Part shown: piece after piece, positions 11,795 through 39,155 of the stretch
Numbering within the stretch: the first letter of the stretch is position 1
Layout: the number at the start of each line of letters is the position of its first letter
IMG/VR virus record: IMGVR_UViG_2049941000_000247
DNA length: 45,687 nucleotides
Source: an uncultured virus (IMG/VR IMGVR_UViG_2049941000_000247)
Lineage: Duplodnaviria; Heunggongvirae; Uroviricota; Caudoviricetes
Direction: 5' to 3' (one strand)
Position numbers and translations under genes: made by a program
Notes under the pieces: generated by a model
The model's input: the letters and a program-made list of their open reading frames with translations, nothing else
The model's database searches: none
Told to the model about the DNA's origin: nothing

Positions 11795-12817
11795 TCATAG
11801 ATTCCATTCCGCCTTATCAATCCCTGTTTCTATTGCGGCCATCGCCGCAAAGAACGGATAAAACTGCTGCGGTACAACAGCATTTCCTAAGCATCTGATC
11901 CTGTCCACCCTGTTTGGTACCCCATCATCCACTCTAGGAATCGGAGGTTCATGTGGCCAATCCTCCCAAGCGGGGTGACTTCCAAAAAGCTTCTCAGGAG
12001 CCCGTCGTATCCATGCCTGTCCGTCGGCTTCTCCGGTGTCCAATATCTCGTTGTGATCCCGCCCTTGTAATCTGTCTGCGTTGGTGTCGGCATGAGTTCC
12101 GTGAACTTCTGCTCGTAACCCATCAGCCATTCCAGAAGTCCGGGGTTCGTCTTGCCGCCATTCCCCTGAGACAGCTGCCTCCGCTCCTCTTCTGTTATCA
12201 TTCCGATCTCCGCCATGCGTTGGAGCGTCTTGAAGTTCTCCGTTCCGCCGCACAGACCAGCACCTGTGGATGGNNNNNNNNNNNNNNNNNNNNNNNNNNN
12301 NNNNNNNNNNNNNNNNNNNNNNNNNNNNNACAATAGCGACCCGTTCCCTTTTGTGCGGGGCGTCGACGCCGCAAGCCGGAATAACAAACGGTTGGACTTC
12401 GTAACCTTCGTTTTCCAAGTCAGCACACACCGTGTCGAGTGCCAGATTGATGATCCCAGGCACATTTTCACCAAGCACCCAAGAGGGCTTGAGTTCTGAT
12501 ATGACTCTAAGCATTTCAGGCCAGAGGTAACGGTCATCGTCAACGCCTCTTTGCTTCCCGGCAAGGGAAAACGGCTGGCACGGGAATCCGCCAGAAACGA
12601 GGTCGACTGTTTTGAGCCCTGTCTTCTTATAAAAATCATCTCCTGTAAGTGTCCTTATATCTCTACATCTTGGAACATCTGGCCAGTGCTTTTCAAGAAT
12701 CTTGAATGGATAATCAGCCCACTCGCACTGCCACACAGTAACAAATCCGGCCATCTCTGCAGCGATATCCAATCCGCCTATGCCGGAAAACAATGAAAGA
12801 TGTGTAAGCGCCCTCAT
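11795..12817 (-). CDS. DNA (cytosine-5)-methyltransferase, large (alpha) polypeptide
   Basis: Motifs I FSGIGG, IV GGFPCQPFS, VI ENVPG, VIII PHKRERV, X RIRCLGNAVVPQ. No motif IX in this frame. Internal N gap. Confidence 0.92.
   Translation of the reverse strand: MRALTHLSLFSGIGGLDIAAEMAGFVTVWQCEWADYPFKILEKHWPDVPRCRDIRTLTGDDFYKKTGLKTVDLVSGGFPCQPFSLAGKQRGVDDDRYLWPEMLRVISELKPSWVLGENVPGIINLALDTVCADLENEGYEVQPFVIPACGVDAPHKRERVAIXXXXXXXXXXXXXXXXXXXXIHRCWSVRRNGELQDAPTHGGDRNDNRRGAEAAVSGEWRQDEPRTSGMADGLRAEVHGTHADTNADRLQGRDHNEILDTGEADGQAWIRRAPEKLFGSHPAWEDWPHEPPIPRVDDGVPNRVDRIRCLGNAVVPQQFYPFFAAMAAIETGIDKAEWNL
11887..12639 (-). CDS. Overlapping-frame small (beta) polypeptide of the methyltransferase carrying motif IX (true start uncertain)
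   Basis: Alternative frame open for ~250 codons inside the MTase gene. Contains NPGLLEWLMGY and NLRFLEWMMGYQTGWT (motif IX-like) and PTPTQTDYKG. Confidence 0.75.
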   Translation of the reverse strand: MIFIRRQGSKQSTSFLADSRASRFPLPGSKEALTMTVTSGLKCLESYQNSSPLGCLVKMCLGSSIWHSTRCVLTWKTKVTKSNRLLFRLAASTPRTKGNGSLLXXXXXXXXXXXXXXXXXXXPSTGAGLCGGTENFKTLQRMAEIGMITEEERRQLSQGNGGKTNPGLLEWLMGYEQKFTELMPTPTQTDYKGGITTRYWTPEKPTDRHGYDGLLRSFLEVTPLGRIGHMNLRFLEWMMGYQTGWTGSDA

Positions 12818-24039: not shown

Positions 24040-25047
24040 CTTTGTTATTTGACTAAAATACTTATTTTCAGATTATTTGGATTGCCTCTTCGGCACTGAT
24101 CCCGAGTTTGTAAATTCTTGCGTACAGCGTGTGATATTTGATACCAGTAAGCTTCGCCCAGTCCGATAACGTATGCGATTCGCCATGAGCGTCAATGATT
24201 ACAGTGTTCGTACGGTTGTTGGCCTGTACACGTGCATCCTCCCATCTGCAATTGTACGGAGAATACTCACCATCAACATCGATCCTATCAATGGATAATG
24301 AATCATCGTATCCGTTCGCCAGAGCCCAATCACGGAACGCAACATAGTCATTTAGCCATTCGTCGCACACAGATATACCACGGCCCCCATAACGCTGATA
24401 ACCTGGTATGTTCTTGTTATAACATCGTCCCTTCATATTGCACCAGATACGATAAAGTCTCGTATGCCGATCCCCATGCTTAACAGTGCGATCTAATATG
24501 CTTTCCATATTCAAACATCCGCAGCTTTTCGAGTTTCCCTTTTTAAGATTGGACGACATGACAATAACCTCGTTACCGCAATCACATCTACATTTCCATT
24601 GCGATTTTCTTTTTCCGGACGGCAGCACGTGGAATCCTGCGAATTCGACAACGGTCAGTCTTCCGTATTTATTACCAATCAAATTCTCCAATTTGGGCAA
24701 GCACTTCACATCCTTTTATTCTGTTTCTGAAAATAAGTAAACCGGTCGCTACACCGTGTCGGCGCATTAGCGCCCTATCGCTTTCGCGACAGAATAGACT
24801 ATATCTTCGTCCCATAAGGACGCCCACCACTTCCACCGCGCTTGCGATGTACTCCCGTAAAGGGATAGTCGTTGGACGTTCCCCTGTTCGGGGCTTCGCT
24901 GCTGATTGCCCAATCCACATGATTCTCTAACTGTCACGCTCCCGCTTATTTCATCGGCACGTTGTAGTTCATGCGGCTCTAAGGGTGTTCCAGCAATTCA
25001 ATGGGTTATTGTTCGAGCGCGTTACCGCGCAAGCGGCCTAAGCATTA
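24040..25047 (-). ncRNA. Group I intron in the portal gene
   Basis: P1 GGCU|UAA-UGC-UUAGGCC with U.G at the splice site. Core motifs AATTGCTGGAA, GGCAATCAGCAG, CAACGACTA, AAGATATAGTCT. Terminal G 24040. Removal restores ...NNDKA-SANALL... in frame. Confidence 0.93.
24068..24709 (-). CDS. Intron-encoded HNH-type homing endonuclease (213 aa)
   Basis: GNKYGRLTV, WKCRCDCG, RLYRIWCNMKGRC, YGGRGI, SIDRIDVDGEYSPYNCRW. Lies 3' of the intron core. Confidence 0.88.
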   Translation of the reverse strand: MKCLPKLENLIGNKYGRLTVVEFAGFHVLPSGKRKSQWKCRCDCGNEVIVMSSNLKKGNSKSCGCLNMESILDRTVKHGDRHTRLYRIWCNMKGRCYNKNIPGYQRYGGRGISVCDEWLNDYVAFRDWALANGYDDSLSIDRIDVDGEYSPYNCRWEDARVQANNRTNTVIIDAHGESHTLSDWAKLTGIKYHTLYARIYKLGISAEEAIQII

Positions 25048-26138: not shown

Positions 26139-27868
26139 TCGAATTCACCGCCTTTCCCGGCAGAGATGGTGGCCTGATAATAAACAGCTTCGCAGAATCA
26201 GCGCCCGCGTTCCCGCGCCGCGTCATCTTGCTCTCAAGCTGAGTCGCCACATAATAGTTATAAGAAAGACTGGAGTATCTGTCCTTCCGCATATCCGAAA
26301 GCTCAAATACACGGACCTTTCCTCCAGACTCCTCGTGTTGTAGTTTCACAAGTTCGCTGATAAGCAGCGTCGTATCATAGTAAGCCTTCGCAAGCTCCAT
26401 CTGCTCGGGCGGATTAAGACTGTTATAACCCTTCAGCTCGCCAAGCAGCTTCTCTCCGTCATATTCCGTCACAAGAAGCCGTATGCGGCCGCTTCTGAAT
26501 CCCTCGCGAAGGAGGAACGCTGCGTCAGAGTTGAATTGTGCGCTTGCTTTTACCGCCCATATGACCCTGTCTGCCGTAGGAGACGTACATCTCTTTGCCA
26601 TTTCTTCATTGTTGCAGCATGAAAGAGCCGGGTAGACCTCGCCTGTATCTGGATCTGAGATATCTCTGGCAAGAGCGTCGTACACTCCAAGACCAAGTCC
26701 ACTGCAGTCAAGTACGATATAGTCGCACACATACTCGTCATACATCTTCCTGATCGCAAGTGCCTGGTCGTCCGTGCGCATGCCCTCATACGCGTCGGCA
26801 AACACGATATTGTTCACATACCGTCCCGCTTTCGTCGGCATCATCTGATTGATGAATACTGCAGTCGCGTCGTTGTTGTTCTTCCTGCTGGACATCAGCG
26901 CGATATCCGCAGACAAAATTCGAAGCTCTCCGTTTTGCTTTGGAGGTATACGAACAAACTGACTGTTTACTTTTGACGATAAACGATCAGGCAGCATCGG
27001 ATACTTGATGTGCCTGTTCTTCGCTATAGAGTCATATTCAAAGAACGCGCCGTCCGCAGAGCCGAAGAACTCAGCCTCCATCTCCATTGAAAACTTCACA
27101 TCGGAGAAATTCTGCTCCTGTTTTTCGTCCGCAACGACCTCTGGGTCAAGCAGCCCTTCTTCTATGGAAAGCTGGTATGGGAACCCGCACACAAACTGCC
27201 TGCGACCAAGCTCCGTCATGGATCGGCAGGCGTCCACGCCTTTCGCGTATGACCNNNNNNNNNNACATCGTCAGGTTCTTCTCTTTGTTGTATTCCGCTC
27301 TGCGCTGTTCCTCCGTCAACTCAGAATACTTCGGCATCCGACGCAGTGTCAGGAACTTACGAAGCACTGTGTCGATCGTATCCTTACGAATAAGCCTGAA
27401 CTCATCGAGAAGAAGCACATGACACCGATTGCCGCGCGCAGAGTCGGAAGCCGTTACAACCTTGATCGCGCTCGAATTTTTGAAAACGACCTGTGCGTTC
27501 GTACCGTTGATCTTCGTCTGCTTCTCGTCGATCTCCGCACGCAACTCTGCTGAGTTTGGTATCAATTCGAGCATTATCTTTTCGAGGACATTTTGCGCCT
27601 GTCCCCTTGTCCCTGACGCGATACATACCTTCGTACCAGGATACAGTATCGAACGACACACGCAGTATACAGCGCTCAAATACGTCTTGCCCAGTCCTCT
27701 AGCTGCAATCCATACGAATGTGGTACTCCAGAACATCATGGACAGTACGATGCGCTGAAACAGCTTCAGCCTTATATGCAAATAATCCTCAACAAACTTG
27801 TCTATATTTTCCCTGTAAAAGGCGCCCCAGTACGCAGCGCCCTCCATGATTTTATCCGCCCGTGTCAC
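26104..27868 (-). CDS. Terminase large subunit (split by a 10-N gap at 27255-27264)
   Basis: Walker A ARGLGKT, Walker B LLLDEF, nuclease motifs LSADIA...NNDAT, IVLDCSGLG, RKDRYSS. Confidence 0.93.
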
Positions 27869-31597: not shown

Positions 31598-31614
31598 NNN
31601 NNNNNNNNNNNNNN

Positions 31615-32455
31615 CCACATCCTTTGTCATCATCGAAAATCTGTTGCCGGCGTATTCTATATCCCCATCCTGATCCAAGACAGGGAAGGAGATTTTTCTC
31701 CCGCTCTTCATAAGAAGATTTTCGATGATCTGGTCGCCGCACATATCCCACGCAAACTGTTTCGATGAGCTGCGTGTATAACAAAGATCCAGAACGATAT
31801 TACACAGTGCGTTCTCATCCGGACACACAGACGCGCACCCTCGCTCAAAATCATCGCGCAGCATACCCAAATAGATATTGACGTCGGCCTTATCGATCTT
31901 TTCACGCTCGGCAAACATCGTATAGCTTGTCATCCGATTCCCGTATTCATCGTATAAACGCTTTATCGCGCTGAACTGACCGTTCGTATATTCCACGTCT
32001 CCGCGAAGCATCGAATAATCGAATTGTGATGCCTTCGGAGCAGAAAGACTTCCATCGAATGTCTCTTCGATCTTCCTGCAGATTCTGTTCATCACGCAGT
32101 CATTCATACCGACAGGCATATAGATGTCGTAATATTTCAGGAACAGCGCCTGATCCTCGGTCCTTTTATGATCCGGTATATTTTTAAGTTCTGCGACCGT
32201 CATACCAAACTCTCTGAGACAATTCTTGTCCGTATTCCTGATGTATGTATTGTACTGCTTCATCAGAGAGGGGTAGACGTACCGCATAAAATACGGCTTA
32301 CGTCCGACAACGATCCGCCTGTAAAGGTCCCTCTGAGACTCATCATCGATCACACCGGCAGCCCATCTGTCATGCCAAGNNNNNNNNNNNNNNNNNNNNN
32401 NNNNNNNNNNNNNNNNNNNNGCATAGGCTTACAGACGATTCCCTTCGCTTTATCT
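31615..32455 (-). CDS. yonO: Single-subunit RNA polymerase, exon 2 (internal and terminal gaps)
   Basis: After the terminal G the sequence reads A GAT AAA GCG AAG GGA (I-DKAKGIVCKPM), then KPYFMRYVYP...KQFAWDMCG. Confidence 0.85.
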
Positions 32456-33521
32456 CCTTTATACCCTCGGTTTCCCGATATTTGATAGGGGAGTAGACTA
32501 TATCTTCACCCAACATCCGTTGGGGCACGGCACTTCCCATCAAGCATTTCATCTTGAAGGTATGAGCTTCATCATCTCATTAAGATGGTATGCTCTAGTC
32601 GTTAGACCTTCCTCTACCTTACGGTAAAGGCTTGGCACCCGGTTAGCATATGTGTGATATGTCAATCTATTCCAGACCAGCGTCGCCTATGGACAATGGA
32701 TGATATGTAAGCAGGAGACGTATTGTATTCTTCGGCAAGCTCCTTCAATGTTGCGCCACCCGCTTTCTTTCTGCGGATAGCTCTAATATCATCTGGCGTA
32801 AATTTAGCACCGTTCGGACGCTCTTTCTGTATACGTGAAAAATTAGCCTTAGCCTCTTCACTCCATTTATACCCAGAGGCAGCTTCTGACGTCATTTTTC
32901 CCCACCTTTTACGGTCGTCTTCTGTCCACGATTCAAATCGCTTACTCTGGGACTGGGACATTCTCTTCTTTGTCTCGTCAGAAAGTTTTCGTCCAGTCAT
33001 ATGCTCACGGTTCTTTTCTCCAATCTTCTTTTTCGTCTCCTCTGACAGATGCTTACCTAAATTGTACCCGACAGAGCCACCGTCATGAAGATTATAGCTC
33101 AGCCCGCTGGTACGATACTCTGCGATATACTTGATTTCAAGATCATCAAGCGTAGCTACATCATCAACAACCTGGATGACCGCAAATTCAAAAGAATCAG
33201 ATCCATACTCATTCCAATCACTTTGTAGTCCGGGATTAGAATGCGTGCCGCTATTAAGCAATGATCTATGGCTATCCCATCTGTCTCCGAAATTCATACT
33301 TGTCTTACCGATGTAACTCATACCAGTTACTTTGTTTGTAATCCTATAGATTCCGAACAGCTTATATACGCTTTCCATTATTACACCTCCATTCATCGTA
33401 GATTATATCACACACTTAGCCTTTCCGCGTTAGCAGCGTCACACATTATGACGCCACACCCTGTATTTACAGGTTCACCGTGTTTATCATCGCACATTAC
33501 TGTGCGAGGCGACTATTACTA
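32456..33521 (-). ncRNA. Group I intron in the RNA polymerase gene
   Basis: P1 GCGAU|UA-GUAA-UAGUCGC with U.G at the splice site. P7 elements TCTAACGACTA and GAAGATATAGTCT. Terminal G 32456. Splicing joins AT|A to give QQNAI-DKAKG. Confidence 0.9.
32662..33378 (-). CDS. Intron-encoded GIY-YIG homing endonuclease with NUMOD3-like repeats and a C-terminal HTH
   Basis: GIYRITN...SYIGKT...RWDSH, GKHLSEETKKKI and GRKLSDETKKRM. RBS GGAGGT before ATG 33378. Confidence 0.92.
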   Translation of the reverse strand: MESVYKLFGIYRITNKVTGMSYIGKTSMNFGDRWDSHRSLLNSGTHSNPGLQSDWNEYGSDSFEFAVIQVVDDVATLDDLEIKYIAEYRTSGLSYNLHDGGSVGYNLGKHLSEETKKKIGEKNREHMTGRKLSDETKKRMSQSQSKRFESWTEDDRKRWGKMTSEAASGYKWSEEAKANFSRIQKERPNGAKFTPDDIRAIRRKKAGGATLKELAEEYNTSPAYISSIVHRRRWSGID

Positions 33522-35431
33522 ATCGCGTTTTGCTGGTACAGCTGCCCACACTGTATCCTGTAAGATAGTATTCTGTATTCTTCCGAGTCAACAGGATACC
33601 CAGCCTGTATCTCAAACATACTGGTGATCCAGTTCGTCGTCTGTCCTATTTCATTTCCGAAGCTCGCAATGTTCGACCTGATACAATCCTCATCTGTCGG
33701 TACACATTTGCCCGCCTTCCGCTGTACGCACATTAAAGCTGGAAGCTCAACCATCTTTGCCACAAGCACTTGATTGTCTGTTAACATGCACAGATCGCCG
33801 TCAAAATCGCATCCGTTGAGCGCCATCGTCGCCGTGTCCCATGAGTTGAATACAGTAGACGCGTTGAGATACCGATACCAATATCTCACGCTGTCATTTC
33901 TGGCCGGACGCACAGAACGGATATTATTGTGGCATGTCATCGGAGCCCTGAAGCAGGCAAGCCTTTCCGCATCTCCGTCGGCCCAATATTCGTTGTAAAT
34001 TTCACCCGCTTTTAGAAGCCCTGTTACCGGAAGACCGAAAATACTCTGGCATAGAAGATACGGATCGCCTGACACGATAGAGTAATTTCCATGTACCTTC
34101 AGCACACCGCGCTTCGCCTCATTGATCCTGTTGCGGATTTGATTATAGATACACCGCTGCACGTACGGATCGTTCATCATATCCGGATCGATCATGATCG
34201 CCTTCACGTAGTCGGAAGGCAGCCTGTCTACGTTGCTCTCATTCAGACCGCACCCATTCAGGAATATGGCAGTCTTTCTCCAGTCACCGCCAAGCACGTC
34301 CTGTATCTCTGACACAGTCGGCTCTATCAATCGGTCGATATCTGAATCGTCCAGTGAGTAGGACTGGATGAACTGATAGTTCAGCCGCCTCTCGTTCTCC
34401 AGCTCTTTCGGAGCAGTTTTGGATACGCCGAATGTGTATCCGTTTGATATGGACTTCTCCAAATAATCCTCGCAGTTCTCGTAGCTGTCCCAGAGCTTAA
34501 CCATCGACGTAGTAAGCACGAGCTCCACGTTTCGAATGTCTACCTCATTACCCCAGGCATCTTTGACGATATACGACCCTGCCACCTTTTCCGCAAAATC
34601 AATAAAGTCGAACGTGAATGCCACGCCTTTTTCAAAAGCAAACCTCGTATTCATCGCGCAAGCTGTATAGTCAAGACACAGCTCTTCGCTCCACCTTACA
34701 GAGAGCGACGGCAGCATGAGACCAAACCCATCTGACGCATTCAGCTTGATCGGATAGTTCTTCTTCAGCTCCATCTCAGGCTCGCCGTCGCCTTCATCAG
34801 TAAGATACACTACGTCTGACAGGAACTCCGTTTCCGCGTCCGGCACAACAAGGACGCCGAGAGGGAAGGATACAGGATTTGACGCGCTGCACGTAAGCGC
34901 CTTATACGCCTCCAGCTTTGCCGGTACAAGCTCCTTCTGCATATCGCGCCCATTGTCGATACGCCGTCTCAGCTCATCCGCAAGACGCTCACTGACAAAA
35001 ACGATCGTGGAATTCTTGATGCCGCCGTTTGTGCCGAGCAGACGTTTATACCGTATACCGTTGATACTGAAACCACGGCAAGCCGTGTAGTAATCCTTTT
35101 TCCTGTCGATGATAAGACACATATAATCCGGCTTGAACTGGAGCTCGTCCAACTCCGCGTACAGCTTCCTGATCTCTCTGATATTTCCGGCGCTGTTCGG
35201 CTCTCCGCGCAATCGTTTGATACGAAAGCGTATATCACGCGCAGCCATGTCCGCGTCTGTGATATTGTTGAGCTCGTCGATCCAACGCAATATCTGACTG
35301 TCCGCTATGGATATGATCTCGTCGTTCCTTCGTGCTTCGCTCAGCGGGAGCGTCAATTTCCACCCTTCTGAGCGCAATCTGGAACTGTGTATCTTAAATA
35401 TGTATTTCTGACAAGTAAGTTGTTTCCCTAT
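33522..35431 (-). CDS. yonO: YonO-type single-subunit (RdRP-like) DNA-dependent RNA polymerase, exon 1
   Basis: Catalytic NGCDFDGD, plus DGFGLM, FRAPMT, LNYQFIQ. Located at the head of the late cluster as in SPbeta. Start probably ATA 35431. Confidence 0.9.
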
Positions 35432-37549: not shown

Positions 37550-38239
37550 TTACATGGCAGCATATTCGGATTCGCCGATGCTGCTGTTGATAAGGTAGTT
37601 ATACTTCACGCTTCCGAGATTCAGCATCTTATACGCGTCCTCTATCTCCTCCTGGGTTATCCCGATATAATCCAGCGTCTGAGCGGGGGAGGAGTGTCCG
37701 AGCATCTTCTGGAGCAGGAGAAGCTTCCTGCTGTCGTTATGGCTCATCAGCATCTGGTGGTAGCAGAACGTCTTCCGAAGCGTATGCGTCGACATCTTGA
37801 TATTAAGATCAAGCTCTTTCCCCCATCCGGATACTATTTTGTGCATCGTCCTGAGACAGAGCGGCTTGTTTCCGGTAAAATCTCGATTGCTTGATATACT
37901 CATGAACATATAGTCGCTCAGGCTCACACCGGGAGTGTTCTCCAAAAACAGCGTGACTGCCTCGATCACAGCGGTATTGATCGTGATGTAACGGTTCTTC
38001 TTCCTCTTTCGCGTATTGCGCGTCTTCTTCTCAAAGACGGGGAAGCTGTCCTTGAACGTCAGGTTGTCATTAATGAGGTTTGAAAACCGAAGCATCCGCA
38101 GATCGCTGGCACGAAGTCCAAAGTTGATACCGACTATGAAGAGCATATTGTCCCTCCACCGCTTATTGTCGATCAGGTACTTTGAGATCCGCATGATGTC
38201 TTCCATCTTCTTGATCGGTTCCGCCGCGTGCTCAGGCGC
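37550..38239 (-). CDS. Tyrosine recombinase/integrase family protein (5' end in gap)
   Basis: Catalytic residues GLRASDL (R), EKKT (K), THTLRKT (HxxR), LGHS (H), TLDYI (Y). Confidence 0.92.
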   Translation of the reverse strand, partial: APEHAAEPIKKMEDIMRISKYLIDNKRWRDNMLFIVGINFGLRASDLRMLRFSNLINDNLTFKDSFPVFEKKTRNTRKRKKNRYITINTAVIEAVTLFLENTPGVSLSDYMFMSISSNRDFTGNKPLCLRTMHKIVSGWGKELDLNIKMSTHTLRKTFCYHQMLMSHNDSRKLLLLQKMLGHSSPAQTLDYIGITQEEIEDAYKMLNLGSVKYNYLINSSIGESEYAAM

Positions 38240-39155
38240 NNNNNNNNNNNNNNNNNNNNNNNNNNNNNNNNNNNNNNNNNNNNNNNNNNNNNNNNNNNNN
38301 NNNNNNNNNNNNNNNNNNNNNNNNNNNNNNNNNNNNNNNNNNNNNNNNNNNNNNNNNNNNNNNNNNNNNNNNNNNNNNNNNNNNNNNNNNNNNNNNNNNN
38401 NNNNNNNNNNNNNNNNNNNNNNNNNNNNNNNNNNNNNNNNNNNNNNNNNNNNNNNNNNNNNNNNNNNNNNNNNNNNNNNNNNNNNNNNNNNNNNNNNNNN
38501 NNNNNNNNNNNNNNNNNNNNNNNNNNNNNNNNNNNNNNNNNNNNNNNNNNNNNNNNNNNNNNNNNNNNNNNNNNNNNNNNNNNNNNNNNNNNNNNNNNNN
38601 NNNNNNNNNNNNNNNNNNNNNNNNNNNNNNNNNNNNNNNNNNNNNNNNNNNNNNNNNNNNNNNNNNNNNNNNNNNNNNNNNNNNNNNNNNNNNNNNNNNN
38701 NNNNNNNNNNNNNNNNNNNNNNNNNNNNNNNNNNNNNNNNNNNNNNNNNNNNNNNNNNNNNNNNNNNNNNNNNNNNNNNNNNNNNNNNNNNNNNNNNNNN
38801 NNNNNNNNNNNNNNNNNNNNNNNNNNNNNNNNNNNNNGTCAATAGTCTTATAAAAAATAAAACAATCTTTTTTGGCACATTTTGAAATCGTTGTTACAAT
38901 GCATCGTTTCTGGCGGGGCTATGGAAGATTCATCGAAGTGAATACAGCTATGCCAGAAGATGTGCTTGATAAAAGATGCAATTGCTATCAGGGGTCTGAA
39001 GGGCTGGGTTGGATGGCTGAAAATGTGGTAAAAACGGGGGATGGGAGATGAAACGACTTACGGCGTTCCTGGCTTTTACCTGGTGGTAAATACCATTACC
39101 ACGGGGCCGGAAGAGTGAAAAGCGGCCACGGAGTGAGCCACGTTCACCACGGGCA

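Follow-up and report, generated by a model that had tools for sequence, protein, structure and literature searches.

A putative homing group I intron in the YonO-family RNA polymerase gene of an uncultured gut phage

The stretch of DNA analyzed here (45,687 nucleotides, nt; hereafter the window) belongs to an uncultured virus of the Caudoviricetes (IMG/VR record IMGVR_UViG_2049941000_000247), a gut phage of the Clostridia type. On its minus strand, a gene for a YonO-family RNA polymerase is split into two exons by a group I intron of 1,066 nt (32456..33521), which contains an open reading frame (ORF) for a GIY-YIG homing endonuclease. Exon 1 (33522..35431, minus strand) comprises 636 codons plus the two bases AT and apparently begins with ATA behind a Shine-Dalgarno-like run. 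It matches the RNA-dependent RNA polymerase (RdRP) family of Pfam (PF05183, E 4.7e-11) and, in a tblastn comparison with yonO-annotated genes, has 26% identity to yonO of SPbeta and its relatives. Exon 2 (31615..32455, minus strand) comprises about 270 codons and opens with the region of D638 and K641, which belong to the 18 columns invariant in 103 homologues; both exons are covered by a single PHROG family, 35857. The catalytic DFDGD motif (D542/D544/D546; 33794..33808, minus strand), read from the sequence, is likewise invariant in these homologues, as is a motif at 33941..33949 (minus strand) that was matched by its residues and spacing to R962/P964 of QDE-1, the role of which is taken from the available text of PMC9508822. 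The enzyme is of the YonO type: a single chain with DxDGD and R-x-P, homology to SPbeta YonO, and an RdRP-like two-barrel fold, as judged on an intronless homologue that is 75% identical (L049). By analogy with SPbeta YonO (PMC5467207), and from the position of the gene ahead of those for HU, the terminase, the portal, and the tail, the enzyme may transcribe a late operon.

The start codons aligned with position 35431 were surveyed in 51 distinct upstream contexts (loci L001-L073). ATA was found in 27 of them, ATT in 7, ATC in 5, CTG in 5, ATG in 3, TTG in 2, and other codons in 2. The polymerase gene appears to use a start codon other than AUG, preceded by a strong Shine-Dalgarno run, with 46 of 51 contexts having ATA, ATT, ATC, CTG, or TTG. 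Such a conserved start is possibly a brake on translation.

Exon 1 ends with QQNA and two bases of an Ile codon, and the intron is inserted in phase 2 of this codon, Ile637 (AT|A). The intron starts at 33521, immediately after the U that closes a perfect P1 hairpin as a U.G pair, and its final base is G32456. When nine candidate G positions for the 3' end were tried between 32444 and 32469, 32456 alone yielded the junction of the homologues, CGQLYQQNAIDKAKGIVCKPM. Joining at this terminal G restores the reading frame. Intronless homologues read QQNAIDKAKG across the site, with the junction sequence QQNAIDKAKGIVCKPM. The preliminary description, made from the DNA letters alone, had placed the intron at 32456-33521 between an exon that contains DFDGD and reaches QQNAI and one that resumes with DKAKG; both the placement, to the base, and the contiguity of the homologues across NAI-DKAKG are borne out. 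Its statement that the unspliced message stops seven codons into the intron, with a loss of roughly the C-terminal third, also holds: about 270 of about 905 residues would be missing. The GC content is 44% in the intron vs 50% in exon 1. A full-length polymerase would require splicing, which is itself predicted here. A search of sequencing runs for this sequence listed no run of RNA.

Direct evidence for an intronless allele in a close relative was found in contig 22 of run X7. This contig matches both exons (40 differences in 765 letters and 22 in 853 letters). Between the positions corresponding to 32379 and 33592 of the window it has 111 letters, the number expected if exactly 1,066 nt are missing, and these letters consist of those at the assembly gap of exon 2, 35 bases of exon 2, and 70 bases of exon 1, with nothing in between. 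The intron is covered by runs X5 and X6, which come from other studies, and intron-plus alleles are present in three studies (X1, X5, and X6). Inside exon 2, a run of 41 N at 32380..32420 (no strand) breaks the reading frame in the window. A real frameshift was rejected; the break is an over-long assembly gap, because contigs of runs X1, X5, and X7 have six letters there, as the spacing in homologues also predicts. The window itself may derive from one of these three runs. The last codons of the polymerase gene enter a run of 17 N (31598-31614). In total, the window has 32 N runs, and the terminase frame changes at one of them (10 N, 27255-27264); the apparent gene breaks at such runs are likely assembly gaps.

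The elements of a group I ribozyme were found along the intron, all on the minus strand. The P1 hairpin (33509..33526) pairs the last five exon bases with the internal guide, has a GNRA loop, and places U33522 opposite G at the 5' splice site; this U.G pair is present in all 19 alignment rows that have letters there. The stretch 33435..33482 holds the 5' strand of P3 and, ahead of P4, two extra hairpins named P3.1 and P3.2 here; next come the 5' strand of P4 and the 5' arm of a P5 extension that encloses the ORF (33405..33430). The 3' half of the core (32492..32660) includes the 3' arm of the P5 extension, the 3' strand of P4, P6/P6a, the R element with P7 (32603-32596), P7.1, P7.2, the 3' strand of P3, P8, and the S element; P8 is by eye a perfect 6-bp hairpin. 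The P9 region with a GNRA hairpin and the terminal G occupies 32456..32491. Two hairpins, P7.1 and P7.2, are predicted between P7 and P3. From these hairpins after P7, the intron was filed as IA2-like, a subgroup called heterogeneous in the available text of PMC11878797.

Covariation was assessed in related introns. In total, 34 distinct inserts were gathered from polymerase genes; 24 of them, sharing the anchors of the subtype, were aligned, and 4 near-duplicates were dropped, giving 20 rows. Paired cells in these rows amount to 84/95 for P1, 122/131 for P2, 115/120 for P3, 119/120 for P3.1, 118/119 for P4, 60/60 for P6, 135/148 for P6a, 100/100 for P7, and 58/61 for P9; a value of 38/80 for P8 stems from a misregistered comparison and has no bearing on that helix. 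Compensatory changes were found in P3, P3.1, P4, and P6, and P7 also shows changes in both strands. In 3000 shuffles of the rows, the pairing seen for P1-P4, P6, and P7 was never attained. Additionally, profiles of the halves of related introns, built without the window row, match the window at 33518-33407 (E 3e-22) and 32658-32456 (E 1.8e-44). The support of the core by helix covariation is strong but not formal, and the assignment to group I in the preliminary description is supported by the P1 U.G pair, the terminal G, and the covarying helices P3, P4, P6, and P7. The search with Infernal that it proposed failed to detect the intron: no match to Rfam RF00028 was found at the gathering threshold or at E<=1. 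The model misses the intron for two reasons: its core is interrupted by the 717-nt ORF, and P3 and P4 are separated by the two extra hairpins. The ORF-less intron at the same site in locus L252 matches RF00028 with 34.1 bits (E 4.1e-7), below the gathering threshold of 50, and the Rfam alignment treats its P3.1/P3.2 stretch as an insertion.

The ORF in the P5 loop (32662..33378, minus strand) encodes a protein of 238 residues with a GIY-YIG domain, NUMOD3, and a C-terminal helix-turn-helix-like region, in agreement with the nuclease first proposed for this intron. A ribosome-binding-like run is located ahead of the ORF (33390-33384). The protein matches TIGR01453 above its cutoff, and its best PHROG match is 314. 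Residues Y11, Y22, R33, H46, E81, and N96 are invariant in 8 aligned sequences; by comparison with I-TevI, we take them to have catalytic-type roles. With its conserved Tyr, Arg, His, Glu, and Asn and the NUMOD3 domain, the homing endonuclease looks intact. An extended -10-like run upstream of it (33412-33402) was not accepted as a promoter: among 18 long introns, a single one has it at that place, and the run also serves as an arm of P5.

Relatives of the nuclease were found in 34 loci. Ten of these are at the window site (two of them judged from the 5' side alone) and six at a site 4 nt downstream (two judged from the 3' side alone); five lie beside distant polymerase genes (L093-L096 and L098, placed by this proximity), and 13 have no polymerase match. 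Close relatives of the nuclease thus follow the window site and the site 4 nt away. The cargo of the introns at the window site differs: a GIY-YIG ORF in L281, an unrelated ORF in L269, and none in L252. From its family and this distribution, the GIY-YIG protein is predicted to cut intronless alleles near the insertion site.

Occupancy of the window site is scattered among relatives. Exon 1 located 73 viral loci (among the best 80 of 242 stretches); 61 of these are unsplit and 12 are split, the latter all at sites other than that of the window. Among 78 genome loci, 72 are unsplit, and 4 of the 6 split ones have the intron at the window site; both sets of counts may be biased by the patterns used. 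In a quickly built tree with 105 host genes, 8 changes are required to account for the 8 carriers of a same-site intron, at least 5 of them forced by well-supported branches; shuffled labels require 7.8 on average. In the survey of the site proposed at the outset, the site is shared by scattered relatives, and most homologues are unsplit. The nearest polymerase relatives sit in bins labelled Ruminococcus or Clostridia.

These counts bear on the earlier suggestion that late transcription is gated by a ribozyme. It holds trivially, in that splicing must occur, and lacks support as a statement about regulation, given the 61 of 73 and 72 of 78 unsplit loci, the intronless close relative, and the sporadic presence of the intron. 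With a regulated gate, late transcription would start at a time set by the splicing efficiency, which would in turn depend on GTP, Mg2+, translation, or a chaperone of the host. The unspliced protein would indeed lack the invariant D638 and K641 and the last 30% of the chain, a G.G mispair in P4 that is stable across two studies might make folding conditional, and phage phi3T keeps an ORF-less intron. Nevertheless, most homologues and one close relative are intronless, at least two structural types of intron occur sporadically at nine sites, a second intron is found in the portal gene of the same phage, and the conserved non-AUG start is a more general candidate for limiting the polymerase level. 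We regard such a gate as very unlikely. The same small probability is given to an extended version of it, in which the intron is a conditional switch: the ribozyme, weakened by the G.G pair, would splice only if permitted by guanosine, Mg2+, or a chaperone of the host, and the nuclease would disable the same motif in co-infecting intronless rivals. If this were true, the late genes of YonO-family phages would be on only when splicing is allowed.

Nine firm intron sites were found in the polymerase genes: one after R-x-P-M-T, four within NGxDxDGD, and four within L-Y-Q-Q-N-x-I-D-x-x-K. A tenth candidate (L138, 641.0) scored too weakly to count. In a ranking of 908 windows by conservation, the sites in DxDGD and IDxxK take ranks 16-99, and sites 504 and 636 take ranks 187 and 616, respectively; equally conserved peaks at 237, 272, 310, 354, and 680 have no intron in the sample. 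The explanation that introns merely track sequence conservation was rejected. Because two sites rank low and comparable peaks are intron-free, active-site motifs account for the pattern better than does conservation alone, in what is a small sample. The polymerase genes of L020, L079/L080, L138, L184, and L286 contain a pair of introns, of which one lies in the DxDGD motif and the other in the motif surrounding the window site. The 20-base P9 end of the window intron is present in at least 114 viral stretches (L113-L226), most of them without a polymerase match, and the subtype probably occupies other genes as well.

The motif at the window site was placed by structural comparison. The model of the intronless homologue (predicted local distance difference test score 88) matches RDR2 (Z 26.5, root-mean-square deviation 8.4, 612 aligned residues) and QDE-1 (Z 23.8, deviation 4.4, 631 aligned). 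A model of a 203-residue fragment that ends three residues past K641 aligns to QDE-1 with Z 12.9 and a deviation of 3.2 over 157 residues, its last residue falling on QDE-1 1122 in 5 of 7 rows and on 1121 in 2 of 7. Read back without gaps, I637, D638, and K641 are modeled as the counterparts of QDE-1 V1115, D1116, and K1119, and a rigid trigger helix of the QDE-1 type is likely. According to the available text of PMC9508822, these QDE-1 residues are part of the trigger-loop subdomain and make contacts with the base, the 3'-OH, and the γ-phosphate of the nucleoside triphosphate (NTP). In the model, the junction separates Ile637 from Asp638 within one helix, and the intron would split the codon directly before the counterpart of the 3'-OH-binding Asp; for this reason, the unspliced product should be inactive. 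In terms of motifs, QDE-1 and RDR2 (PDB 7y7s, 7w82) correspond to the window enzyme in DxDGD, R-x-P, and I/V-D-x-x-K, and they match the model of the intronless homologue with Z 23-26, but they are eukaryotic RNA-silencing enzymes with 12-18% identity. Sequence searches of the PDB gave no matches with exon 1 or with a 31-row profile; a 103-row profile matched RDR2 and QDE-1 with the trigger region unaligned, and a profile of the fragment gave chance matches (best E 0.069). An assignment of the motif to the bridge helix was dropped after the QDE-1 comparison and the fragment alignment. In the available text of PMC5467207, YonO is described as having no detectable homology to the trigger loop of multisubunit enzymes. 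The three motifs with introns match NTP-contacting elements of QDE-1, which points to a trigger-helix Ile-Asp-x-x-Lys in YonO.

In our view, this locus very probably holds a selfish, mobile homing intron at an essential codon of a gene for a phage single-subunit two-barrel RNA polymerase. Once transcribed, both ribozyme halves, as placed by comparison, would fold around the looped-out ORF. By the chemistry of its class, the ribozyme would bind guanosine in P7, cut at the P1 U.G pair, and join AT to A, thereby restoring the Ile-Asp-x-x-Lys of the trigger helix. The GIY-YIG protein would cut intronless alleles near the site in co-infecting relatives, and repair would copy the intron in. The site would persist because it encodes NTP-contacting residues that cannot drift, so that exact loss alone is viable. 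Splicing would then be an obligatory and probably unregulated step.

Several points weigh against this interpretation. The shuffle control leaves relatedness among the rows in place, the window itself served for drawing the structure, and the alignment excludes 10 of the 34 introns, which have no subtype anchors. The 105-row tree was built quickly and leaves many forks open. For the trigger helix, the mapping relies on where a structural alignment ends and on motif spacing rather than on a printed residue alignment. The P10 pairing is weak by eye, and both splicing and cleavage are predictions from sequence. Finally, the single unpaired cell of P4 (1/119) is the window's own G.G at pair 3, where the other 19 rows pair. 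This mispair is not an assembly error, because runs X1 and X5 carry identical bases.

The P4 mispair is also the sole feature that fits a degenerate element, which would splice poorly in a defective prophage or leave the polymerase to be made as two chains. The integrase of the window, suggesting a temperate phage, and the division of jumbo-phage polymerases into subunits, for which an origin from introns was proposed (PMC7598289), would be compatible with this. However, no damage is seen in either exon, in the nuclease, or in the remaining core helices, alleles with the intron were found in the three studies named above, a split would part Ile637 from Asp638 inside one helix, and exon 2 has no in-frame start codon at the junction. 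Degeneration of the element is accordingly held to be highly improbable.

Homing-nuclease introns of phage RNA polymerase genes have been described elsewhere. A group I intron with the HNH endonuclease gp210 lies in the gene for the β-subunit of the virion RNA polymerase of PhiPA3 (PMC11620839), and an intron with a homing nuclease was described in an RNA polymerase gene of 201phi2-1 (gp273/274; PMC2919709). The window intron is like these in being a homing-nuclease group I intron at conserved residues of a phage two-barrel polymerase gene. Unlike them, it has a single-subunit, YonO/RdRP-like host gene, a Clostridia-type phage, a GIY-YIG nuclease, and a trigger-helix site, with no phage nucleus indicated. 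The precedent of PhiPA3 gp210 acting on PhiKZ (PMC11620839) raises the thought that, in addition to homing, the nuclease serves as a weapon, cutting, in co-infection, the polymerase gene of intronless relatives that have diverged too far for repair by homing, and blocking their late transcription. The target motif is invariant even where the flanks diverge to 22-75% protein identity, and intronless relatives are the majority. Yet the PhiPA3 effect depends, in the available text, on genomes separated by a phage nucleus, which nothing suggests here, and ORF-less introns persist at the same and neighboring sites, as an ordinary homing cycle predicts. This additional role is possible at best and rather doubtful; the window element itself is best regarded as an ordinary selfish intron.

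The T4 td intron with I-TevI is an IA-type phage intron with a GIY-YIG/NUMOD3 nuclease. The window intron shares with such IA-type introns (td, Bastillevirinae, and nrdF) the R and S elements, the predicted P7.1 and P7.2, and a looped-out GIY-YIG ORF, but its ORF is located in the P5 loop, two extra hairpins separate its P3 from P4, and its host gene encodes an RNA polymerase. Similar extra hairpins are a feature of Bacillus prophage nrd introns; a literature search for them found no papers. The Bastillevirinae introns encode PHROG 314 nucleases (PMC11878797), and the nrdF intron of the Bacillus cereus group carries I-BthII (PMC2248736). In gut phages, group I introns frequently interrupt genes, and their splicing was observed in RNA reads (PMC12880540), as is also the case for crAss-like phages (10.1101/2020.07.20.212944).

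The preliminary description was aware of no published intron in this enzyme family, with its novelty left unverified. This stands for yonO itself, as no description of a yonO intron was found in the literature searched, including the available text of PMC5467207, PMC8270828, PMC11035940, PMC9756591, PMC11878797, PMC11835236, and 10.1101/2021.11.22.469490. It does not extend to phage RNA polymerase genes in general, given the published introns of PhiPA3 and 201phi2-1. No yonO intron was found by term in the available text of PMC2248736, PMC7598289, and PMC5449584, either; the subscription literature lay mostly outside this search, and the supplementary intron tables of PMC11835236, PMC12350094, and PMC11878797 could list some. 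The present analysis adds a mapping of the site to the trigger helix, an intronless allele in a sister phage, and SPbeta, phi3T, and Goe14 as a test set.

Unannotated introns were found in the yonO genes of both phi3T (KY030782; 400 nt, no ORF, L305:4483-4882) and Goe14 (OL580764; 1,290 nt with a GIY-YIG/NUMOD3 ORF, L306:4483-5772). They are of the same subtype and in the same motif as the window intron, but their insertion point follows the Asp codon and lies 4 nt further downstream than that of the window. SPbeta YonO belongs to the same family as the window enzyme and likewise has an HU gene downstream, but it is intronless and has 26% protein identity. The yonO genes of phi3T and Goe14 are 98-99.8% identical to that of SPbeta upstream of the intron vs 81% downstream, and this drop suggests a recombination break at the intron. 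The Bacillus subtilis trio of SPbeta (intronless), phi3T (ORF-less intron), and Goe14 (GIY-YIG intron) makes homing, interference, and gating testable.

The expectation that annotators would call truncated genes proved correct in phages c-st, CB473P3, CB457P1, phi3T, and Goe14. In these five cultured phages, among them the model phage phi3T, the YonO genes are interrupted by introns that the annotation misses; split YonO polymerases are counted as broken because the introns are unannotated and the subtype escapes the Rfam model. In c-st (L074), CB473P3 (L075), and CB457P1 (L076), the YonO-like gene is annotated as 2-4 hypothetical ORFs. One intron-like insert was found in c-st, in the DxDGD motif, and two in each of the two Enterocloster phages, CB473P3 and CB457P1.

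Among the other features of the window are genes for a tyrosine integrase (37550..38878) and a C5 DNA methyltransferase (11795..12817); because of the integrase, the phage is probably temperate. The second group I intron, of about 1,008 nt, splits the portal gene (25047..24040, minus strand). It matches RF00028 with 88.9 bits, and its boundaries were set by eye. An HNH ORF is located in its 3' part (24709..24068), and all three portal homologues compared are contiguous across the site.

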